Both the position numbers and the translations under genes were made by a program. A stretch of 64,000 nt of DNA, taken from positions 2,624,001 through 2,688,000 of the forward strand of contig CM000151.3 in NCBI GenBank assembly GCA_000004695.1. Reading direction: 5' to 3'. The notes under the pieces are model-generated. The model was given only the letters and a program-made list of their open reading frames with translations. It ran no database searches and had not been told where the DNA came from. Numbering within the stretch: the stretch's first letter is position 1; every line of letters begins with the position of its first letter. This stretch comes from Dictyostelium discoideum. Lineage: Eukaryota. Shown here piece after piece: positions 4,315 to 47,645 of this stretch.

Positions 4315-5355
4315 TTATAATTTACTTATTAATTTATTAAAATGTAATAATTTTGGTAAACCTTGATCAACTAATTTAATTGCTTCAATAGCACAACCCC
4401 AACTTACAGTGAAACCACTACCACCATGACCATAGTTATGAACTACTAATTTTGAACCACCTTCAAAGAATTCATTTTCTAAACGAATTTCATGTCTAGC
4501 AGGACGTAGACCAACTTTAACACCTTGAATTTCAATTCTATTTTTAGCAAAACGTGGTGAAATCATGGCTACACGTTTTAAGATTTCTTCAGTATCTTTT
4601 TTAGTTGGATTTGTATTGTAATCGTGTTCTTGATTTGTACCACCTAAAACTGTATTTGTTAAACGTGGAATTACATATGCGATATGATCTTCTTCATCCA
4701 TGATTGAACGATCGGTTGAGTTTTTAATAACGATAATTTGACCACGACCTGGATAAATTGTACGATCATTGAATAATTCACGTGATCCTAAACCGGTGCA
4801 ATTTACAACTACATCATGGTCAACAAAAGCTTCACGAATATCAACGAGGTGTCTTTGTTCAATGATTCCACCTAAACTTTTGAATTGGTCGACTAAATAA
4901 TCCATATACATATCAGTGTCCATAACGAAACCGTCATCAATTGCATAACCATCTACATATCCATCTGGTAGTTCATCTTTTCTAGCTCTTCTAAATGATT
5001 TAATGTATGGTTTCCATTCTGGATCTTCTGGATGTGGACGTCTGAAAATTTCATTTACTTTCTTTGTGATTGTACCTGATTTTGGGTCATTAATAATATG
5101 ATCTTTATAATATTGCATGGTTTCTGCTGACCATTTACCAACTAAATCTAGTGGATTACATAAAAATGGATACCATAATGCTGCTGCTTTATTTGAGGTT
5201 GTATTTGGTGGTAAATCTTTGGCCCAAATTGATACACTCTTATAATTACCACTCTTTAATGCAATAATACCTGTTGATAAACCAATACAACCACATCCAA
5301 TAATTAATAAATTAATTTTTGGATTTTTATTATTATTATTTTTATTTTGATTCAT
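4315..5355 (-). CDS. D-amino-acid / D-aspartate oxidase (FAD-dependent DAO family), peroxisomal with PTS1
   Basis: 346-aa ORF. It has an N-terminal Rossmann GxGxxG (LLIIGCGCIGLSTG), DAO-family colinearity (HNYGHGGSGFTVSWGCA near the C-terminus) and a C-terminal tripeptide -SKL. Confidence 0.85.
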   Translation of the reverse strand: MNQNKNNNNKNPKINLLIIGCGCIGLSTGIIALKSGNYKSVSIWAKDLPPNTTSNKAAALWYPFLCNPLDLVGKWSAETMQYYKDHIINDPKSGTITKKVNEIFRRPHPEDPEWKPYIKSFRRARKDELPDGYVDGYAIDDGFVMDTDMYMDYLVDQFKSLGGIIEQRHLVDIREAFVDHDVVVNCTGLGSRELFNDRTIYPGRGQIIVIKNSTDRSIMDEEDHIAYVIPRLTNTVLGGTNQEHDYNTNPTKKDTEEILKRVAMISPRFAKNRIEIQGVKVGLRPARHEIRLENEFFEGGSKLVVHNYGHGGSGFTVSWGCAIEAIKLVDQGLPKLLHFNKLISKL

Positions 5356-30045: not shown

Positions 30046-30669
30046 AATATTAAAAATAAAAAAAAAAAATTATTTATTAAATTGTAAAAATTAATTTAGA
30101 AATATAATTGTTTTCTTTTTATTTTTTTAAAGTACAACAAAAATAAAAATGTATCAGTTCTCAAATTATTTGCTATTAAAATAAAAATTTCATCGAAAGC
30201 AAATAAAAAAATAAAATTTATAAAAAAAAAATTAAATAATTTCTAAAAAAAAAAGAAAAAATTGCTTTAACTTGTTAAAAATAATAACTTTGTAATAAAG
30301 TTACTCTATAAAATTAATAGATATTAAATATGCATATTACATTACTAATTATAGTTGACACACATTTAAATAATATAATAATAATAATAATAATACTGTC
30401 AACTCATTATAAATAATATAAATACTAAAGAATAATTTTATAAACAATATTGAATATTATAAATATAAACTAATATTAAATAAAGATAACAAAGTATTAT
30501 TCAATTATATAATTATTAATTATATATTTATAAATTTTTTTTTTGAATTGGATAACGCAATTATTATTTGCTTCTCCTTGAGATGCTAGATCTCATTTTA
30601 TTTTATTTTTTTTTTTTTTTTTTACAGGGTCTCTAAAAGAGGGGTTAGTTTACTTTTTTTTTTTTTTTT

Positions 30670-30960
30670 TTTTGTTTCGAATTTTGAATTGTATTATTAC
30701 TTTTGATTAAAACATCTTTTTTGTTCCAACTTTTTTCTAAATCTTTTTTTATTTTATCGTCTGGTTCGTGATTGATGTTTATGACGTATTTGAATTGTTT
30801 TTTTTTTAATTGAGTTTTATCCACAATTTCGCTTATTTTTTGTAGGCATTTGTGTTGCTTAATATTTGTGGTGTTGTTTGTGATTTTCATTTTATTTTCT
30901 TTCTATTTTTTATATTTTTCTTTAAAAAGTTAAAAATCTGGAAATTTTCTGATTAACTTG
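30670..30960 (-). repeat. 3' copy of the ~290-bp B-like module, near-identical to 35590..35875. It is flanked by oligo(A) tracts (plus-strand T runs at 30651-30672 and 30966-31020). The short C-like module plus terminal oligo(A) is at about 30535-30650.
   Basis: The shared block ...gtattattacttttgattaaaacatcttttttgt(t)ccaa...gtaggcatttgtgttgcttaatatttgtggtgttgtttgtgattttcattttattttctttcta...cttgggttcccagg appears at both locations. Confidence 0.8.
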
Positions 30961-30966
30961 GGTTCC

Positions 30967-31024
<58 letters not shown>

Positions 31025-34000
31025 TTATTTATAGAAAGTACTGAGTGAATTATTGTATTTTTTGAGATGTTTAGGAAGTTCTATTGCGTGAAGAGGTGAG
31101 TTCCATTGTCTGCTAAATTGTAATAGCTTTAGCGAGATTAGTGAGTCTAATTTATTTTGTTCTTCTGGCCGTTGCTTTGATTTGATTCTTAATGTTTTGT
31201 TTATAACCGCTTGTGTCCTGTCCCATGCAGCTCTTTGTGTTTTAATTAGTTCACGTATGACTTGTTGTCTGTGAATTATTATTTCTTTTTCATCGTGAAT
31301 GAGTTTATTTCTTTTGTGCCAGATTTTATCGAATATAATAGCTATTAAATTGGCTACTAGTGCAATTTGTAGATGGTTTAAAATCTTCACATTCCAGGTG
31401 TGAGTGGTGTGTCCACACTTAGTTAGGGTGTAGTTGAAGATTTCTTGTGTGTTTTTGATGTGGGCTTTGCAGTTGAAGAATATATGTTCTGAGGTCTCAT
31501 CTTCCCCACACTGTTGGCATGGCATGTTGTATATTTTTGGTAGTGCTTTCAGTGTGTATCTCCATAATAGATCTCTACCTTTCATGTTTATTATTTTTTT
31601 GATTTCTTTAAATGGAAGGTGTTTGCTATTAATTTTGGTCATTATTTCTTTTTGGCCAGGAGTTGGTATGAATTTGTTGTGTTCAGGAGATTGAGTTGTC
31701 ATCATATCTTCGTATATTTTTTTTAATTTTGGGAGGTGTTCGTAGTGTGTTTGTTTATTTTGTGGAGTTTTTAATTGGGTCCATGCTTGCTTGCATTGCC
31801 AGTGTAGTTGTAGTTGATTTTGTTTTGTTGTTGTTTTGTTGTTGTTGTTGTTTTTGAGTTCCTCTTCCCACAGTTTTATATATGAACTAGGAGTGTTACT
31901 TACTCTTTGGTGGAGGTATCTTTCGAATAACCATGCTTTCTGTGCTAGTTCTCTTGTCTTCAGGTTCCATAAGTTTAGGCCACCATTGATATAGTTGTTT
32001 TGTCTTCTTTGTAGTGAAAGAGAGTTTTTAGATTTTGTGTTGAAAACGAATTTTACGATGTTATTTTCAATACTATTGTGTTGTGGTGTGGTGTTGATGT
32101 AAGTGTGGAACGTTAACTGAGATAGTGCATATGTTTTTGCCATTATGAGTCTGCCCATATAGGTTGATGAAGTTGAGTTCCATGTTACTAGTTTAGCTCT
32201 GATGTTGTCTGAGATTGTATTGATTTTGGATTTGATACCCTTATTGTTGAAGTCAAAGCCGAGGTACCTTTCGTTTGATTTTATGACGGTGTATAGCGTT
32301 CTGGTGTTCCATTTGAAAGTGATACACGAGCATTTGGTTTGGTTTATTTTTGCGCTGGTTGCTTGGCAAAACTTCTTGATCCATTCATTCATGAGGAAAT
32401 GGTCCATAAAGTTGTATGCTATTGTTGCTGTATCATCGGCGAACTGTAGTATTTTAATGGTTTCTTTGGTTACACCATTGATGCAGCGGTCATTTATTAT
32501 AGTAGTTGCCATGCATTCAACCACTAATGCGAAGATAGTGGGAGAGATAGGATCACCTTGTTTGGTTCCTCTTTTTGATGTAAAGCTTTTAGATAATGAG
32601 TTATTGATGTACACTGATGTTTCTGATTCATTGAGTAAGTTCATTATTGTGAGGACCATTTTGAGTGGTAGTTTTAGATGTGCAAGAGTACGTAGAATGG
32701 CGTTATGTGAGATTGAATCGAATGCTTTTTCAAAATCATAAAATGTTATGATTGGTTCCATATCCTCTTTTGTGTTAATCTCTCGTTTTATTATTTCTAT
32801 TGTTGAGTTTAAGGTGATGATGTTATCGTGCAGTAGTCTTCTTGGTACGAATCCAGTTTGGAATGGTGAGATTATTTTGTTTAAGAACTTCAGGATCCTA
32901 TTGTTGATTATTTTCGAATAGATTTTGTAATCGACATTTAGAAGTGTTATTGGTCTATAATTATCCAGGTTGTTTGGGTCTCCTTTGTTTTTATATATAG
33001 TAATCAATATCCCTTGTTTGAAGTCCTTTGGGATTGTTGTGTTCCAGAAGTGATTGTATAGTTTTGATATTATTGGTAGAATTTCATTAATGTGGTTTTT
33101 GTAAAATGTTGGAAGGAGTCCATCTTTACCAGGTGCTTTTCCTTCTTGTATTTTTTCAATGCCTAGTCTGATTTCATATCCTTCTATTGGTTGATTAATT
33201 TCGTCCAATATCTTTTGATCAATCCTTTTATTGAATGTTTTTAGGAGTTCGTGGTGAGTGTCTTCGTTGCATTCTCTCTTCTGGTACAGGTTCTCGTAAT
33301 ATCTTCTTGCTACTTCGAGGATATCCTCGTGTTTTGTTACCAAACAATTGTTGCTTGGATCTAGAATTTGAGGGATTTCATTTGTCTTTCTTTGGACTTT
33401 TAACCTTCTGGTTAAGTATTTTGATGGTGTTTCTTTGTTGTTGATGTGGGTGTTGGTTTGGTTTGCTTGTTTTATTCTTACTTGTTCCTTTAGAATATTG
33501 TTGATCTCTTCTTTAAGGAAGATTGCTCTTGAATCTTTGGCTGTTTCGAGTTTTTCTGCGAGTTCTTTTAGTTTGTTTTTGGTTTTATTGCTTTCTCTAA
33601 TTTCTATATTAATTGACAGTTTCTTTATTTCATCTTTTAGTTTCAACCATTGTTCGCAAATGTTTAATTTGTACCATTTGCTGGTGTTCTCTTCGAATTT
33701 TTTATTGTAGTATTTAATTGTTTTATTAATTTTGAGGCTGGTTGAATTCATTTTGAGAGTTTCTAGGTTTTGTCTCCATAGTCTTTCTCCTTTCTTTTGT
33801 TGCTCGTATTCTGGTATTTTTAATTCAATGATTACCATGTTGTGATCAGATTTTAATTTGATTTCCTTAGTAGTAACTATTGGGTTTAGATGGAGTATCT
33901 TCTTTGAGACAAAGACCCTATCGATGGTTGATTTGTTTCTTGGAAATGTGATTCCATTCTTAATTTCTGTAAATTCGAATTCGTCGAAGATTGTTTTAAT

Positions 34001-34246
34001 ATATTTGTTAAGGTTATTATCCACTGAACAGTCTACATTGAAGTCTCCAGTTATAATATCGCTGTGTAGTATTTCTTCTGTGAGATTTTCCTTATACCAT
34101 TCATGTCTTTCGTTTGACTTTGCTGGGGCATAAATGGTTGTGCATTTGATCTGTGTTTTTGCAATCATCCATTCGGAAGATATAATTCTTTCGTTTATTG
34201 TTTTTGTTGTTGTTTTTATTTGGGTGTTGATGATGATTTGTGACAC
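31025..34246 (-). CDS. Retrotransposon ORF2 (APE endonuclease + reverse transcriptase + Cys-rich C-terminal domain), 1073 aa, no internal stops
   Basis: Motifs as above: ITGDFNVDCS (EN), SDHNMVIIELKI (EN), FADD (RT), CQQCG..H..C knuckle. Confidence 0.85.
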   Translation of the reverse strand: MSQIIINTQIKTTTKTINERIISSEWMIAKTQIKCTTIYAPAKSNERHEWYKENLTEEILHSDIITGDFNVDCSVDNNLNKYIKTIFDEFEFTEIKNGITFPRNKSTIDRVFVSKKILHLNPIVTTKEIKLKSDHNMVIIELKIPEYEQQKKGERLWRQNLETLKMNSTSLKINKTIKYYNKKFEENTSKWYKLNICEQWLKLKDEIKKLSINIEIRESNKTKNKLKELAEKLETAKDSRAIFLKEEINNILKEQVRIKQANQTNTHINNKETPSKYLTRRLKVQRKTNEIPQILDPSNNCLVTKHEDILEVARRYYENLYQKRECNEDTHHELLKTFNKRIDQKILDEINQPIEGYEIRLGIEKIQEGKAPGKDGLLPTFYKNHINEILPIISKLYNHFWNTTIPKDFKQGILITIYKNKGDPNNLDNYRPITLLNVDYKIYSKIINNRILKFLNKIISPFQTGFVPRRLLHDNIITLNSTIEIIKREINTKEDMEPIITFYDFEKAFDSISHNAILRTLAHLKLPLKMVLTIMNLLNESETSVYINNSLSKSFTSKRGTKQGDPISPTIFALVVECMATTIINDRCINGVTKETIKILQFADDTATIAYNFMDHFLMNEWIKKFCQATSAKINQTKCSCITFKWNTRTLYTVIKSNERYLGFDFNNKGIKSKINTISDNIRAKLVTWNSTSSTYMGRLIMAKTYALSQLTFHTYINTTPQHNSIENNIVKFVFNTKSKNSLSLQRRQNNYINGGLNLWNLKTRELAQKAWLFERYLHQRVSNTPSSYIKLWEEELKNNNNNKTTTKQNQLQLHWQCKQAWTQLKTPQNKQTHYEHLPKLKKIYEDMMTTQSPEHNKFIPTPGQKEIMTKINSKHLPFKEIKKIINMKGRDLLWRYTLKALPKIYNMPCQQCGEDETSEHIFFNCKAHIKNTQEIFNYTLTKCGHTTHTWNVKILNHLQIALVANLIAIIFDKIWHKRNKLIHDEKEIIIHRQQVIRELIKTQRAAWDRTQAVINKTLRIKSKQRPEEQNKLDSLISLKLLQFSRQWNSPLHAIELPKHLKKYNNSLSTFYK

Positions 34247-34458
34247 CCCTTGTCCTGTTTTATCAATTGGTGCGTGGTGTGTTATTTTGTTTTTATATTG
34301 TTGATTTATTGAGTAAATTTTATTTGTTTTTATATTTGTTTCAGTTAGAAGTGCTGCGTCCAGCTTGTTGTTGTCTAATACGGTGTTTATTATGCTGGCA
34401 GATTGGATGGTGTTGGATCCTTGGACGTTCCAAACACCTATTCTTATTGTGTTTTTCT

Positions 34459-35793
34459 TTATAGTTTTATTTGGGGTAGATTTTTATCTACCTTTTGAAG
34501 TTTCTGGTTTATTTTGTCTTCTAACTGATCTTTACTTTGTTCGTTGTGTTGTTGGTCTTGTGTGTTTGTGGGGTTTTTTGATTTACTGATTTGTTTTAGA
34601 ATTTCCTTGTTGAAGTTGTCTATATCTTCATCCATTTTTGTTTTTATGCTTTTTTGTCCATATTCACCCAATTTTGGTTTGACTGGTGTTTTGTTGGTCC
34701 TGTTTGTTTTGTCTTGTTGTTTGTTTTTTGGTGTGTTTAACAATTTACTTGGTGAATCGATAATTTTCGATGGTGTACCATAGGTTGGGCTGAAACTCAT
34801 GATATGTTTTATTGGAGAGGAGAAGAACCATTGATTTGAAGGGATTGAAAGTGGGAATTCTATTTTTCTTATTGCATCAGTGTTTGGGCTGGTGAAGTCG
34901 AAGATATCATTTACCTCTCTAAGTTTTTCTTCCGTTGTTAGTCTCTTTGTTTCGCCGTGTTGTTTTATTGGTGTATTGTATGGAGATGGTGGTTCAATAG
35001 GTTTTTCTGATTTTGTTTTAATTTCTTGATTGTTTATCGATTGGGTATTGATCTCATTCTCTATTCTTGTTAGTTCATCTACGTTTTCTAGTGATGCATC
35101 TATTACCTTTTGAGCTGTATCATCTAGGGCCATAAATGTTTTATCATTAGATGAGGAGGTGATTGGTGGGATAATGATTGTTCTTTTTCCTTGTTTTGGT
35201 ATTTGTTCTGATGTAGATTGTGGTTGTTGTTCATCTGATTGTTTTTTATTTTTGTTTTCTTCTTGATTTTCTGGTAATGAGGTTTGATCTCTCCATCCTT
35301 TGTTGGAGTGACCAATTAATGTTAGATTGTCTAGTTCAATGATAGTGTCATATTCTTCTACGACTCTTTTCACTGTTTTGATAATTAGAGTTTCGCCTTT
35401 AATTTCAGATTTAATTAGTTTACATCCTTCATTTTCTATTACCCATTCTATTTCTGTGAGTGATTTATACCAATCGAAATCCGTATACATATTTTTTGGT
35501 CTTAGAGTGGTTATAAATTGTCCTTTTAATTCTGCATCGAACATATTTACAAAATAGATTACTGTACTAATACTGTCTGTGAGAATTTTGAATGTATTAT
35601 TACTTTTGATTAAAACATCTTTTTTGTCCAAACTTTTTTCTAAATCTTTTTTTATTTTATCGTCTGGTTCGTGATTGATGTTTATGACGTATTTGAATTG
35701 TTTTTTTTTTAATTGAGTTTTATCCACAATTTCGCTTATTTTTTGTAGGCATTTGTGTTGCTTAATATTTGTGGTGTTGTTTGTGATTTTCAT
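34459..35793 (-). CDS. Retrotransposon ORF1, 444 aa, intact
   Basis: It starts MKITNNTTNIKQHKCLQKISEIVDKTQLKKKQFKYVININHEPDDKIKK.... The first 57 codons are duplicated in the 3' B-like module (ORF 30645..30890). Confidence 0.75.
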   Translation of the reverse strand: MKITNNTTNIKQHKCLQKISEIVDKTQLKKKQFKYVININHEPDDKIKKDLEKSLDKKDVLIKSNNTFKILTDSISTVIYFVNMFDAELKGQFITTLRPKNMYTDFDWYKSLTEIEWVIENEGCKLIKSEIKGETLIIKTVKRVVEEYDTIIELDNLTLIGHSNKGWRDQTSLPENQEENKNKKQSDEQQPQSTSEQIPKQGKRTIIIPPITSSSNDKTFMALDDTAQKVIDASLENVDELTRIENEINTQSINNQEIKTKSEKPIEPPSPYNTPIKQHGETKRLTTEEKLREVNDIFDFTSPNTDAIRKIEFPLSIPSNQWFFSSPIKHIMSFSPTYGTPSKIIDSPSKLLNTPKNKQQDKTNRTNKTPVKPKLGEYGQKSIKTKMDEDIDNFNKEILKQISKSKNPTNTQDQQHNEQSKDQLEDKINQKLQKVDKNLPQIKL

Positions 35794-35869
35794 TTTATTT
35801 TCTTTCTATCTTTTATATTTTTCTTTAAAAAGTTAAAAATCTGGAAATTTTCTGATTAACTTGGGTTCC

Positions 35870-35912
<43 letters not shown>

Positions 35913-35915
<3 letters not shown>

Positions 35916-37535
35916 TCTTTTTTATATGAAAAATGAAATAATCAAAAAAAGAGATTGTTGTTGTTGTTTGTTTTTTTTCGATCTGATTATTTTTTGCTTT
36001 TTTTTGAAAATTTTGCTACGCAAAATTCTCAAAACGAAACAAATAATAAATTACAATAAAGTAAAAAGATGGCTTTTTAAGATAGTTTATTTATTTATTT
36101 ATTTGTTTTTTAAGTCTTTTTTATATGAAAAATGAAATAATCAAAAAAAGAGATTGTTGTTGTTGTTTGTTTTTTTTCGATCTGATTATTTTTTGCTTTT
36201 TTTTGAAAATTTTGCTACGCAAAATTCTCAAAACGAAACAAATAATAAATTACAATAAAGCAAAAAGATGGCTTTTTAAGATATTTTATTTATTTATTTA
36301 TTTGTTTTTTAAGTCTTTCTTATTTGAAAAATGAAATAATCAAAAAAAGAGATTGTTGTTGTTGTTTGTTTTTTTTCGATCTGATTATTTTTTGCTTTTT
36401 TTTGAAAATTTTGCTACGCAAAATTCTCAAAACGAAACAAATAATAAATTACAATAAAGTAAAAAGATGGCTTTTTAAGATAGTTTATTTATTTATTTAT
36501 TTGTTTTTTAAGTCTTTTTTATATGAAAAATGAAATAATCAAAAAAAGAGATTGTTGTTGTTGTTTGTTTTTTTTCGATCTGATTATTTTTTGCTTTTTT
36601 TTGAAAATTTTGCTACGCAAAATTCTCAAAACGAAACAAATAATAAATTACAATAAAGTAAAAAGATGGCTTTTTAAGATAGTTTATTTATTTATTTATT
36701 TGTTTTTTAAGTCTTTTTTATATGAAAAATGAAATAATCAAAAAAAGAGATTGTTGTTGTTGTTTGTTTTTTTTCGATCTGATTATTTTTTGCTTTTTTT
36801 TGAAAATTTTGCTACGCAAAATTCTCAAAACGAAACAAATAATAAATTACAATAAAGTAAAAAGATGGCTTTTTAAGATAGTTTATTTATTTATTTATTT
36901 GTTTTTTAAGTCTTTTTTATATGAAAAATGAAATAATCAAAAAAAGAGATTGTTGTTGTTGTTTGTTTTTTTTCGATCTGATTATTTTTTGCTTTTTTTT
37001 GAAAATTTTGCTACGCAAAATTCTCAAAACGAAACAAATAATAAATTACAATAAAGTAAAAAGATGGCTTTTTAAGATAGTTTATTTATTTATTTATTTG
37101 TTTTTTAAGTCTTTTTTATATGAAAAATGAAATAATCAAAAAAAGAGATTGTTGTTGTTGTTTGTTTTTTTTCGATCTGATTATTTTTTGCTTTTTTTTG
37201 AAAATTTTGCTACGCAAAATTCTCAAAACGAAACAAATAATAAATTACAATAAAGTAAAAAGATGGCTTTTTAAGATAGTTTATTTATTTATTTATTTGT
37301 TTTTTAAGTCTTTTTTATATGAAAAATGAAATAATCAAAAAAAGAGATTGTTGTTGTTGTTTGTTTTTTTTCGATCTGATTATTTTTTGCTTTTTTTTGA
37401 AAATTTTGCTACGCAAAATTCTCAAAACGAAACAAATAATAAATTACAATAAAGTAAAAAGATGGCTTTTTAAGATAGTTTATTTATTTATTTATTTGTT
37501 TTTTAAGTCTTTTTTATATGAAAAATGAAATAATC
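35913..37535. repeat. Tandem array of about 8.16 near-identical copies of a 199-bp unit, forming the 5' end of the retroelement. It is consistent with the TRE5-A A-module, which is reported to occur in variable copy number.
   Basis: Period is exactly 199 bp (the ORF-track ORFs at 35926, 36125, ... 37319 are identical 69-aa artefacts). The unit is aagtcttttttatatgaaaaatgaaataatcaaaaaaagagattgttgttgttg...ttgctacgcaaaattctcaaaacgaaac...ttatttatttatttatttgtttttt. The copy at 36113-36311 carries three point differences. Confidence 0.9.
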
Positions 37536-37583
37536 CATATATATTTATAAAGCTAACAAGCTTTATTACAACTTACATACAAA

Positions 37584-37666
37584 GCAAGGGTAGGAAAGTC
37601 TGGTTAAATCCGTGTGACTTAAGATCTCATCCATTCGGTTCGCGAGTTCGAATCTCGCCTCTTGCA
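37584..37666 (+). tRNA. tRNA-Leu (anticodon UAA), class II with a long variable arm, 83 nt
   Basis: Acceptor GCAAGGG/CTCTTGC (one G-U pair) with discriminator A. D-arm GGA..AGTCTGGTTAAA..TCC. Anticodon loop CT-TAA-GA. T-arm GCGAG-TTCGAAT-CTCGC. A T5 run starts at 37670 (Pol III terminator). Confidence 0.85.
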
Positions 37667-37919: not shown

Positions 37920-38660
37920 AAAAATCAAATTTTTTATTATCTAAGTTTTGGTTTAAATGAAAAACCAAAAATTGGAGTACCATCAATTTTAGTATTTTCA
38001 AATGGTGGTAAAATATGGAAATTTAAGACCAAATTGGTTAATAAGAGATATAATTCATCTTGGGAGAAACCCATACCAACACAATTTCTAACACCAATAC
38101 TATATGGAAACCAATTATTTGATTAATTATTTTGATAAATGAATCTTTCTGGAATAAATTCATTTGGTGATGACCAGTATTTTTCGTCTCTAAATATTGA
38201 ATAAAGTGATTGAATGATTTGAGCACCTTTTAGAAATGTATATTTACCATTATCAATTGTAAATTCTTCAATTACTAAACGTGATACACCAATGCTACTG
38301 GTGGGTATAATCTTAATACTTCTTTTAATGAAGCATTAAATAAAGGTGTCAATGGCCGGTGAGATAAATTAATTAATTTATTTTCACTTGGTAATTGTTT
38401 TAATTGAAATTCTTTGCGATTACATTACTCTAGAGTAAACCATTTCATTGTAGCACTATTATTTTCAACTGCAGCTAAAATTCATTTGTAATTGAAATAA
38501 CTGAACACTCTTCTTTTCCATTTACTTTTCTATATTCTGAAATAATTGAATCTAAAACATCTCTTGGATTATCAATATAAATTGTTTCACAATGTTCTTA
38601 ATAATATTTATTAATTATCTTTTTCAAGGGGTCTGAAGGATGACCAAAAATTTTTGAATA
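37920..38660 (-). pseudogene. Cytochrome P450 pseudogene fragment. It covers only the C-terminal ~230 aa equivalent, with multiple in-frame stops and frameshifts.
   Basis: The minus-strand conceptual translation gives ...NPRDVLDSIISEYRKVNGKEE.., LKEVLRLYPPVALV (K-helix ExxR / PPV region), FRDEKYWSSPNEFIPERF (PERF motif) and FPYSIGVRNCVGMGFSQDELYLLLTNLVLNF (heme-binding FxxGxRxCxG). There is a TAA between PERF and the heme loop and at least three other stops or shifts. The +ORF 37863..38126 and -ORF 38038..38226 are pieces of it or its antisense. Confidence 0.75.
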
Positions 38661-38752
38661 AATAAAATAAAATGGATAACAATTATTATTGAGAAAAATT
38701 AATTCTGATTAATCTGTGAAATATTGCTATTTGAAATTTTTTTTTCAAAAAT

Positions 38753-38823
38753 GGCTCCTTAGCATAGTGGTATTGCGCTTCCCTAGTAAGGAAGAGGTCA
38801 TGAGTTCGATCCTCATAGGAGCC
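38753..38823 (+). tRNA. tRNA-Thr (anticodon AGU), 71 nt
   Basis: Perfect 7-bp acceptor GGCTCCT/AGGAGCC with discriminator T. Anticodon stem CTTCC/GGAAG with loop CT-AGT-AA. T-arm ATGAG-TTCGATC-CTCAT. TTTT lies immediately 3' (38824-38827). Confidence 0.9.
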
Positions 38824-38849
38824 TTTTAAAAAATTCTGTTAAATAGATC

Positions 38850-39060
38850 AAGGGATCGATTCTCCAAACAAAAAAACAAACAAACAAAAAAACAAACAAA
38901 CAAACAAAAAAACAAACAAACAAACAAAAAAACAAACAAACAAACAAAAAAACAAACAAACAAAAAAACAAACAAAAAAACTAACAAAAAAACAATCAAA
39001 AAAACAATCAAACAATCAAACAATCAAACAATCAAACAAACCAACCAACAAACAAACAAA
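38850..39060. repeat. (CAAA)n / (CAAACAAACAAAAAAA)n microsatellite, about 200 bp
   Basis: Directly visible downstream of tRNA-Thr. The ORF 38826..39023 is an artefact of it. Confidence 0.9.
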
Positions 39061-44386: not shown

Positions 44387-44725
44387 ATTATTATTATTAT
44401 TATTATTATTTCTATTTAGAAAGTTGTATTCATTATCAATCATTTTCAAAATGAATGAATGAATTTTTTTTTTTTTCTTTTTTTTTTATTATTTTGGCGC
44501 CAAAATTTTTTTTTTTCCAAAATTAAAAAATAATAAAAAACTAATAAAACAACAACAAATTTTAGTTAGTATACAAATCTGCCAATCAAGCCATTAATGG
44601 TACAACTACGTTATGATTGGTACCACTTATGGTTAAAATAAAATTTCGGTGTAATAAAACCAAAAATATTTATTATTTAATTTAATTTTTTTTTATTTAA
44701 TTTAATTTTTAATTGGTGTTTCATC

Positions 44726-47271
44726 TCATCTGTCTTTAAAAGATTTTAAACCACAAATTAATTTATGATCACTTTGCCAATCAACAGTTTGACAATCACG
44801 ATCACAATAGTTTGTTGTACATTTTGAAGTGCAAATTTTACCACAATTTGCGCATAGCGATGGAGTTGTGGGGCCTTGAATGATCCAATCACAATCGTGA
44901 ATTTTTTGATTATCAAATTTAGAACGACATGTTGAAAAGGCAATAAACGAGTATTTACCACCAACTTTCAAGCTTGAAGGATCGATACATTGACCACCTT
45001 CGACAGCGAATCTACATGGGAAACCTTGGACGTCCCATAAGAGTAATTCGATATCATCACCTCTGACCAACGGTTGAGCGGCGAGTGTACTTGGAAAAAA
45101 CATTTTTCAAAGACAGTTCTAATGTCTGGCATTAGATCAGCCAATGGGTTTGTACCACCTTGATCAAATGAAGACTGAGCAACAAGTTTATAATCCTTCA
45201 TTGTGATTCTTGGATTCTCTGGAAACCCCTTTGAGTAGCCACCATACTCTTTATGTCTAATGAGTTTATCATTTTCATGGTCTTTTAATAATTGACGAAA
45301 CTCTTTAATCACTTGAATTTCTCTAGCAGACTTTTTAACCTTTGCTTCTTGAGCGTTTGCAAATACAAATGGTACTTTTTGATCGAGATCAACCTTTACC
45401 TTTCTTCCCATTTAGATGTGGCTTTCTTTGAGAGATTAGCCAAGATTTGACTTGCTTTACTTGAGCCTTTGATTGAAGCAACCTCTAAATATGTTAAACC
45501 TAATTTACCATTTTTAGTGACATTGATACCTTTGCCATGACCATCAATTTGTAAATACAATTTACCCAATTCAAATGTAGCTTGAACTATATTATTTTCA
45601 CCATCATTATATTCCAAAGATTTTTGAAAATTCTCCAATGCTTTTGAAATGGCAGATGATTCAGATGATTTCAATAATAATAATCTACCTAAATTTAAAT
45701 TTGCTTCACCAATACCAGTATTCATTTTATAACCAGTTGACATTGCAATTGATAAGTTTGTAGCTTTTGTATACATTTGCTTTGCCTTTTATAAATTACC
45801 TTGACTACGATAATAATCACCCATGGGTGCAACGAATACATCAGCAAACACCGTTTCATTTAAACCTTTACTTTTGATTAACATTTTCTCAGCATTTTTT
45901 AAATCTTGATAAAAGAATTTACTTGTCTGTGCAGCTGGTTCATATTCCAATGATGGATTCTTATCGAAGTATTCCCTTCTTTGCTTTACATTTACTTTAA
46001 TCAATGCATCACTAACCAAAATCAATTTCAGGCTCTGATATCTCTGCAGCAAGTTTAACAGTATCCATTTCTGGTAAAGTACCCGCCCTTGTCATATTGG
46101 TAAAACGTTATCAGAATCTATCGGCTCGGTAAATGCTGATTTCTGTTTTGTACCCATTACTGACCTGACGCTATCCTTATACTTTTTATTATTTGGCTCA
46201 AGATCCAAAGCTAATTTATAAAAGTAGGCTGCCTTCTTTGATTTTTCCAATAGTGTAAAACACTTTGCAATCACAGCATACCCCTCTGCCCTGCATGGAC
46301 GAATGTAAAGTAATCTTTCAATATCAGATTTCGCAATATTTAAATGCTGTTGCATTCTAGTCTTCACCTTTTCACACCACTGTAACCAACATTTTCCTCT
46401 TGAAAGGTATAGATCAGAAATGAAATTCTCTGTCAAACCTCTATAATCCAATGCTAATGAATTGAATTGCTGCTTGCCCATTACCTGCTTTAATCATTTC
46501 ATCAGCTTGATACTTATATACCATCGCCTCTGCCATTTCATCTAAATGTGGATAAAGTGGTTTCAACTCCAAATCATCTGAATTATCAGTCCATGAATTA
46601 AGTTGTTTAGTCCAATCTGCAACACTCATAGTTTTATCCAATACAAATATACTCTCAACAACTTTAAGTGTAACTAATTTTAAATGATTCCATGAATTGA
46701 ATTGTTCACTATGTTCACAACCTTCATTACATTTTCTTGATTTTTCAGTTGGTTCTTTATCATTATTTGTATCATAAAATCCCTTTATATATATATATAT
46801 ATATGTTAATACTTGTAATTTTATTATTATTATTAATATTATTATTATTATTTTATATTATATTGTATATATGAATATATACCTCATAAAAATGACTACC
46901 ACATGCTAAAATAATTTCATTTTCATTTTCTAATTGACTTGATGGTATATTTTTCCATGGATGACTAACCTAAACATCAACAAATAGATTGAAATCAAAA
47001 TCAGAAGTACGACCAACTGCTAATTTTTTCATCATTAATTCACTTTTAAGATATCTTAATTTTGTATTTTTAATTAAGAATTCACCTCCAACTGGACCCT
47101 CTTTATATTCTGCATAAGTTTTTTCCCATCTTTCATAAAAAATCTTTCTAAAATTTCTGAATGCTCTATCAGATGAGCCAAACCCTTTAAAAAAAAAAAA
47201 GAAAAAAAAAAAAAAAGAAAAAAAATATTTACTCTGTATTTGAATTTATATTTTTCATCAAGACTAACCAT
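44726..47271 (-). pseudogene. Disrupted gene encoding a TPR/Sel1-like repeat protein with a C-terminal MYND zinc finger. It has 2 normal AT-rich introns at the 5' end, then one in-frame TAG and at least five frameshifts.
   Basis: Six successive minus-strand ORFs in different frames overlap each other by 15-40 nt. There is no AT-rich intron between them (44726..45103, 44968..45411, 45396..45776, 45789..46052, 46092..46481, 46441..46641). Sel1/TPR-like segments include YFYKLALDLEPNN and ATFELGKLYLQIDGHGKGINVTKNGKLGLTYLEVASIKG. MYND is CANCGKICTSKCTTNYCDRDCQTVDWQSDHKLIC. The 5' exons are MVSLDEKYKFKYR|GTAAAT.. and GFGSSDRAFRNFRKIFYERWEKTYAEYKEGPVGG...FNLFVDV-TAG-VSHPWKNIPSS.. GC is about 40% compared with about 28-33% in neighbouring exons. 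Pseudogene versus assembly error cannot be decided from the sequence alone. Confidence 0.5.
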
Positions 47272-47645
47272 TTTCTTACTGTTGTTGTAGAATTATATGA
47301 ACAATGAAATTTACAAAAAAAAAAAAAAATTTGTGCTAACTAAAAAAAAAAAATAAAAAAAAATAAAAATAAAATAAAATAAAATTAAAAAAAAACAAAA
47401 ATGGCTAAAATATATAAAATAAACAATTAAATTATATTTTGAACTTCTATTTATAATGGCGAGATTTAAGAAAGATTTTTTTTTTTTTTTTTTATAATTT
47501 TTTTTTTTTTTATTTTTATTTTCATTTTTTTAATTTTTTTTTTTTTTTATTTTTTTATTTTTTATTTGATGGTTTAAACAAATATTCAATCTGAAATTTC
47601 AATAATTAATTTGTTTTGAAAACAAAAAAAAAAAAAAAAAAAAAA

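Follow-up and report, generated by a model that had tools for sequence, protein, structure and literature searches.

A three-exon gene on the minus strand of Dictyostelium discoideum AX4 chromosome 2, at positions 47271 to 44702 of a 64,000-nt stretch (contig CM000151.3, positions 2,624,001 to 2,688,000; the whole stretch is referred to as the window), is with a probability of roughly 0.93 a nonprocessed pseudogene for which no intact AX4 paralog was detected. Nucleotide alignment to an open ortholog revealed that the AX4 copy carries six frameshifting deletions (-1, -5, -1, -8, -7, and -1 nt), three substitutions that create stop codons, and five indels that preserve the frame. The disabling mutations are defined against a functional ortholog, the locus is syntenic, both introns are retained, and the lesions are real in the organism. 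Given the syntenic position and the retained introns, the locus is not a retrocopy. An earlier note, made from the DNA sequence of the window, had left the choice between a decaying gene and an error-rich assembly. The deletions and the three stop substitutions relative to the intact syntenic ortholog favor the former.

Disabling lesions relative to an intact ortholog

To search for homologs, the pieces of coding sense in the window copy were stitched into a conceptual protein of 803 aa. Among 5.8 billion proteins, its sole match was ACTFIW_011930 (P0001), a hypothetical protein of 819 aa from assembly GCA_054859355.1, which is labelled D. discoideum. Amino acid identity was 89% over 100% of the conceptual protein. 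Every frame piece of the window copy aligned to this one protein (tblastn E values of 4e-5 to 0), so the arrangement of open segments is not a chance pattern. The locus encoding P0001 (L001) is colinear with the window from 57286 to 29217, at 84 to 92% nucleotide identity over 28 kb, and P0001 is therefore an ortholog in a diverged lineage and not a paralog. Joining three exons of L001 across GT-AG introns yields precisely the coding sequence (CDS) of P0001, and these introns occupy the same sites as those in the window. At the nucleotide level, the CDS of the AX4 copy and that of ACTFIW_011930 are 94.6% identical.

Translation of minus-strand positions 47600 to 44400 in all three frames confirmed the ATG at 47271, which the earlier note had taken as the start of the gene. 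It had also proposed two AT-rich GT-AG introns; these were found at 47232 to 47185 and 46882 to 46783, are very AT rich, and match the intron positions of the intact ortholog. The statement that the gene begins normally applies to exon 1 only. Frameshift 1 sits eight bases past the intron 1 acceptor, and splicing at the conserved site puts translation out of frame from codon 16 on. Reading the start of exon 2 in frame as GFGSSD, as had been done, requires a non-AG acceptor. This first frameshift was overlooked in the earlier count of at least five frame changes, which is correct for the long exon. There, the coding sense switches among frames, with overlapping successive open segments. The overlaps had been attributed to small indels instead of introns, and deletions of 1 to 8 nt were indeed present at each frame change.

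Further corrections concern individual lesions. One frame change had been placed at about 45105, in a T6 run; its cause is the loss of one G at 45091/45090. This site lies 5 to 6 nt downstream of the T6 run, the length of which is equal in both sequences. An in-frame TAG had been noticed near 46970; it was located at 46972 to 46970, and a TAA and a TGA were found in addition. The TGA at 44726 had been regarded as the natural end of the gene, but it is premature. The ancestral stop is the TAA at 44704 to 44702, and the feature therefore extends to 44702. All lesions and structural elements are listed in Table 1.

Table 1. Exons, introns, lesions, and domain remnants of the broken gene, with positions in the window
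Feature	Position	Strand	Description
Exon 1	47233..47271	-	ATG at 47271, codons 1-13, MVSLDEKYKFKYR; intact, same as exon 1 of L001
Intron 1	47185..47232	-	GT...AG, 48 nt; ortholog counterpart 116 nt; position conserved with the ACTFIW gene model
Exon 2	46883..47184	-	Most of the N-terminal HEPN-like helical domain (putative); holds a -1 frameshift, a -3 in-frame deletion, and the TAG
Intron 2	46783..46882	-	GT...AG, 100 nt
Exon 3	44702..46782	-	Codons 116-819 and ancestral TAA; GC 33.9%
Frameshift 1	47176..47177	-	1-nt deletion, codon 16; L001 GGTTTAGCATCATCT, window GGTTTGGC-TCATCT
Frameshift 2	46461..46462	-	5-nt deletion, codon 223; loss of one TTCAT from a TTCAT-TTCAT tandem
Frameshift 3	46094..46095	-	1-nt deletion, codon 348
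Frameshift 4	46029..46030	-	8-nt deletion, codon 370
Frameshift 5	45403..45404	-	7-nt deletion, codon 580, AAAG-rich repeat
Frameshift 6	45090..45091	-	1-nt deletion, GG to G, codon 688; CAAGGTAC to CAAGTAC
Nonsense 1	46970..46972	-	TTG (Leu86) to TAG
Nonsense 2	45789..45791	-	GAA (Glu451) to TAA
Nonsense 3	44726..44728	-	TGG (Trp812) to TGA, 8 codons upstream of the ancestral stop
In-frame -3	codon 38	-	From nucleotide alignment to the ortholog
In-frame -3	codon 328	-	From nucleotide alignment to the ortholog
In-frame +3	45827-45825	-	Codon 439
In-frame -3	codon 600	-	From nucleotide alignment to the ortholog
In-frame -9	44829/44828	-	Codon 775; MYND finger minus three residues
Remains of three-repeat TPR module	46159..46531 (approximate)	-	Codons ~200-325
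Remains of Sel1-like repeats	45464..45866 (approximate)	-	Codons ~426-560
Damaged MYND zinc finger	44753..44854	-	9-nt in-frame deletion removes three residues, including one Cys

Relatives, homologs, and domain content

Loci in relatives were located via orthologs of the flanking FNIP-repeat kinase and compared by tblastn and blastn. Among the examined assemblies of the D. discoideum complex, an intact copy was present only in ACTFIW. In ACTFIR, another diverged assembly that bears the name D. discoideum, the promoter and codons 1 to 472 have been removed by a clean 5' deletion of 1.66 kb; codons 473 to 819 are still open save for an 18-nt in-frame gap. The D. cf. discoideum assembly ACTFIZ retains only two fragments, of 73 to 82% identity, at the syntenic site, and ACTFIY, likewise D. 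cf. discoideum, has nothing of the gene left between conserved flanks. At least four losses of the gene, each by a different route, have occurred (AX4, ACTFIR, ACTFIZ, and ACTFIY). The degraded syntenic remnants in relatives indicate that it is older than the species complex. The search for orthologs of the flanking kinase returned none from D. citrinum, D. dimigraforme, or D. purpureum, and absence of the gene from these species is not claimed.

Two side observations were made at these loci. Across the 28 kb, ACTFIW and ACTFIR are 84 to 92% identical to AX4 at the nucleotide level, with a synonymous divergence (dS) of 0.07 to 0.15, and approximately 95% identical to each other. This divergence is far above the within-species expectation, and the two look like cryptic sister species. 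Assemblies named D. discoideum are about 10% apart at this locus, which matters when they are used as "strains." Both D. cf. discoideum loci contain a Ty3/gypsy-type long terminal repeat retroelement with reverse transcriptase, RNase H, and integrase (L003, 1 to 2137; L004, 1 to 2618). It lies beyond the 1,700-aa gene, where AX4 and ACTFIW have other sequence.

Outside the species complex, one further full-length relative emerged when 1.84 billion representatives were searched exhaustively with HMMER: Heterostelium album PPL_08368 (857 aa; E value of 3e-122; 34% identity over residues 2 to 814). Its neighbor PPL_08366 (890 aa; E value of 3e-255) was added by a profile search, which was lossy in that it overlooked several sequences of its own query profile. 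Weaker relatives from Synstelium polycarpum and a Logan contig cover the N-terminal domain and the TPR/Sel1 part only. Full-length homologs were found in dictyostelids only, and those of H. album indicate that the ancestral state was coding. The H. album copies are without synteny to the D. discoideum locus. On H. album GL290990.1 (1818508 to 1842452; L006), a unit composed of an H-type lectin gene, a TPR-MYND gene, and a B-box zinc-finger gene occurs twice in inverted arrangement. No AX4 protein was among the matches of the homolog searches and no second copy was seen in the window, the protein word-index searches being lossy.

The similarity to Sel1/TPR-like repeats and to a MYND finger, described from the sequence beforehand, was confirmed by profile and Pfam matches. 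Exon 3 holds, in this order, the TPR module, the Sel1-like repeats, a beta-rich region, and the MYND finger. Compared with structures in the PDB, the family profile matched the TPR domains of Hop, PP5, SGTA, and RPAP3 as well as Sel1-repeat structures, at E values of 1e-8 to 1e-45. The latter value was obtained for the Sel1 structure 6ok3, its score being mostly owed to distant family members in the profile. Assignment to the TPR/Sel1 repeats follows from this family profile, in which helix-turn-helix units of 34 to 36 residues recur. Single-sequence Pfam TPR/Sel1 matches of P0001 and of the window copy were just under the cutoff; TPR_1, for example, scored 27.7 bits on the conceptual protein versus a cutoff of 27.8.

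The MYND finger of P0001 displays the complete ligand pattern (CANC..CSKC..CDRDC..HKLIC) and scores 26.1 bits against Pfam zf-MYND (PF01753; cutoff, 22.7), whereas the window copy lacks the pattern and reaches 18.7 bits, below the gathering score. The Cys lost from the AX4 finger is a zinc ligand of the second C-x2-C pair. Since the finger has the same length in the H. album homologs as in P0001, the 9-nt deletion is derived in AX4.

For the N-terminal 165 to 185 residues of P0001 and of the two H. album proteins (P0020 and P0054), no Pfam match was obtained, even at an E value of 10. The N-terminal 110 residues or so align to the N termini of two weaker relatives (hhalign probability of 95.4%). 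Only one of these, the distant relative P0025, scored against Pfam HEPN_DZIP3 (PF18738), at 25.9 bits versus a cutoff of 27. The catalytic Rx4-6H motif is found in P0033 (RNLCSH) and P0025 (RNKATQH); it does not occur at the aligned position in P0001, P0020, or P0054. As a lead, the N-terminal domain may be HEPN-like and noncatalytic; the connection is transitive via distant relatives and does not amount to membership. An AlphaFold2 model of P0001 built from a two-sequence alignment was unusable (predicted local distance difference test score of 35; predicted template modeling score of 0.27).

The ancestral gene would thus have had three exons and encoded a dictyostelid-restricted protein of about 819 aa. 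Its probable domain order was an N-terminal HEPN-like helical domain without catalytic motif, three TPRs, Sel1-like repeats, a beta-rich region, and a C-terminal MYND finger, and its product may have served as a protein-protein interaction scaffold. In the AX4 lineage, the gene was presumably no longer maintained and gathered its lesions in place, with relaxed constraint as the likely cause. Several deletions are situated at short direct repeats, as replication slippage predicts, and may have arisen by this mechanism. A full-length product should not be possible, as normal splicing would lead out of the frame at codon 16.

Alternative explanations, constraint, and composition

If the frameshifts existed only in the AX4 reference, owing to faulty sequencing or assembly, the real gene would be intact. 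The AX4 chromosome 2 sequence was assembled long ago from Sanger shotgun data, the gene lies in a duplicated segment of which the two copies could have been collapsed, and one of the shifts is close to a T6 run. We therefore turned to an independent D. discoideum assembly, GCA_054883475.1, in which the region (L005) was obtained via the intact neighboring 1,216-aa gene. It is 100% identical to the window over all 2,546 bp from 44726 to 47271. Elsewhere in 23.6 kb, L005 and the window differ in homopolymer lengths and by approximately 11 single nucleotide polymorphisms, which demonstrates that L005 is an independent sequence. Moreover, none of the six deletions is located in a long homopolymer, four of them remove 5 to 8 nt or a nonrepeated base, and three lesions are substitutions to stop codons. 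Neighboring genes of the window are undamaged, their products being exact matches to deposited AX4 proteins, so the flanks are free of such errors. The error-rich assembly that had been suggested as an alternative can be considered negligible in probability. A gene that still works, by means of extra small introns, programmed frameshifts, RNA editing, or a shorter protein, would agree with the well-conserved promoter-proximal sequence and exon 1, with a ratio of nonsynonymous to synonymous divergence that is not elevated (see below), and with a 641-aa protein model annotated on the identical L005 sequence. However, the shifts occur where GC content is 33 to 43% and the ortholog has colinear coding sequence, and not in AT-rich, intron-like sequence. 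Nine disabling sites would have to be skipped at the expense of large conserved parts, the conserved acceptor leads to loss of the frame at codon 16, a zinc ligand is gone from the MYND finger, and the gene is plainly deleted in three other lineages. We know of no organism in which six recoding events of four different sizes take place in one gene. Continued function of this kind is highly unlikely.

The 641-aa protein was placed at 5208 to 7753 of L005 by automated annotation, on sequence identical to that of the pseudogene. It is an annotation artifact, a gene model forced around the lesions, and it will spread into protein databases.

The composition of the gene had been called unusual for this genome, and this was borne out. 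GC content of exon 3 is 33.9% versus 21.6% for the whole window. The figure of about 40% given earlier is too high for the exon and is reached only locally; 200-nt windows had a median of 35% and a maximum of 43.5%. The unusual part is GC content at third codon positions (GC3), which is 0.23 for the intact CDS and up to 0.35 in the middle of the gene, compared with 0.09 to 0.145 for 12 resident open reading frames (ORFs) of the window and 0.09 to 0.16 for the neighbors in ACTFIW. Within the window, only retrotransposon ORFs are GC3 rich to the same degree. A change in GC since inactivation was tried as an explanation and rejected: the AX4 copy and the intact copy have equal GC contents (33.9 and 33.8%), so decay is not the cause of the offset. 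The H. album homologs share it, with GC3 values of 0.44 to 0.47 versus 0.23 to 0.34 for their own neighbors. Elevated GC is therefore a conserved trait of the gene family, an ordinary explanation, and provides no evidence of recent foreign origin. A foreign or mobile gene, recently acquired by horizontal transfer or as transposon cargo and now being purged, would account for GC3 values of 0.23 to 0.25 against 0.09 to 0.16 in resident genes, in both AX4 and ACTFIW, for the patchy presence within the species complex, and for the missing synteny with the H. album copies. Full-length homologs, however, occur in dictyostelids only, and the GC3 richness of the H. album copies marks an old family trait. 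The ACTFIZ fragments at the syntenic site place the gene before the species complex, the introns are short, AT rich, and typical of Dictyostelium, and there are no adjoining repeats or transposase. We consider recent acquisition very improbable.

Several points weigh against the interpretation of the locus as a pseudogene. Compared with the intact ortholog, the AX4 copy has a dS of 0.126 and a ratio of nonsynonymous to synonymous divergence (dN/dS) of 0.30. As intact neighboring genes yielded dN/dS values of 0.115 to 0.376, the substitutions alone show no relaxed constraint, and dN/dS was uninformative as a test of it. For the C-terminal third, parsimony with ACTFIR assigned 17 synonymous changes, 25 nonsynonymous changes, and one stop to the AX4-plus-stem branch; these polarized counts are not clearly neutral either. 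It follows that inactivation was recent relative to the split or that ancestral dN/dS was low. We infer the direction of change, with AX4 derived, while most indels are without direct outgroup polarization. The locus may retain a residual role at the RNA level or encode a short N-terminal or internal peptide. Finally, the absence of an intact AX4 paralog relies on lossy protein searches.

Concerning the timing of pseudogene formation, 6.06% of random single-base changes in the CDS create stops. The presence of three stops suggests, as a rough estimate, that about 50 of the 130 differences are neutral substitutions. In the resulting picture, the gene was under normal constraint through most of the divergence and then decayed neutrally, for long enough to gather 14 indel or nonsense events.

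It is conceivable, though we regard it as doubtful, that the gene is of a conflict or self/non-self type, polymorphic for presence and absence, and that its inactivation was repeatedly favored in the species complex. This idea derives from the HEPN-like/TPR/Sel1/MYND architecture, the restriction to dictyostelids, and the duplication beside lectin and B-box genes in H. album. If it is true, such selection would have left as its trace four independent knockouts by four routes, with dN/dS staying near 0.3 until recently.

Genomic setting and comparison with known systems

The locus falls inside the chromosome 2 duplication of Ax3/4. In these strains, 750 kb of the chromosome are present twice (PMC2643946). 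ORFs of the window are letter-identical to the deposited AX4 proteins DDB_G0273081/DDB_G0273787, DDB_G0273077/DDB_G0273767, and D-aspartate oxidase, and the paired identifiers are consistent with this duplication (PMC2643946).

Other features were observed in the vicinity. A second pseudogene, the remnant of a cytochrome P450 gene, is located about 6 kb away, at 37940 to 38690 on the minus strand. The P450 gene is intact in L001 (19624 to 21182; 460 aa; PF00067). Its AX4 copy is without the 5' 755 nt and contains gaps of 3, 4, 30, 1, 6, and 21 nt as well as point stop codons. From 30186 to 37570, the window carries a 7.4-kb insertion that has no counterpart in L001. Its two minus-strand ORFs encode 444 aa (no Pfam match) and 1,073 aa (RVT_1; E value of 3e-33), GC3 is 0.26 to 0.36 with a strong AT skew, and its end adjoins tRNA-Leu(UAA) at 37584 to 37666. 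The insertion looks like a tRNA gene-targeted non-long terminal repeat retrotransposon of the TRE type. Overlapping simple-repeat ORFs rich in FVCLFV are found on the minus strand at 38813 to 39023, adjoining tRNA-Thr(AGU) at 38753 to 38824.

Annotators should regard this AX4 locus as a pseudogene. It also illustrates how a gene was lost in parallel within the D. discoideum complex, and the one lineage with an intact copy offers a natural knockout/wild-type pair for studying the function of a dictyostelid-specific TPR-MYND protein. A literature search found no description of a Dictyostelium MYND pseudogene and no paper on the new Dictyostelium assemblies. This is an ordinary pseudogene of a well-known kind, and its additional interest, parallel loss together with one surviving intact allele, is modest.

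Among known proteins, animal TPR-plus-MYND proteins such as ZMYND12 presumably combine the same two domain types in a different order, suggesting an interaction adaptor; no homology to them beyond single domains emerged in the searches run. DZIP3/hRUL138-like HEPN proteins (PF18738) share the succession of an N-terminal domain and TPR/Sel1 repeats, the link being made via distant relatives, but P0001 and the H. album proteins have neither a direct Pfam match nor the Rx4-6H motif. Closer is the H. album pair, PPL_08368 and PPL_08366, which is colinear over its full length at 34 to 37% identity, has the same domain order, and exceeds its neighbors in GC3. These two genes differ in forming an inverted local duplication with B-box and H-type lectin genes and in containing more intron sequence. 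ACTFIW_011930 is orthologous and syntenic and has the same three-exon structure; it differs from the AX4 copy, with its 14 indel and nonsense lesions, by 819 open codons and a complete C4-C2HC MYND finger.

Nonprocessed pseudogenes without a working paralog, such as primate GULOP, are known as unitary pseudogenes. The AX4 locus resembles them in its ancestral syntenic position, retained introns, combination of frameshifts and nonsense mutations, and functional ortholog in a relative. It differs in that the intact ortholog comes from an assembly bearing the same species name, at about 10% divergence, and in that the gene was lost by at least three other routes in close relatives.

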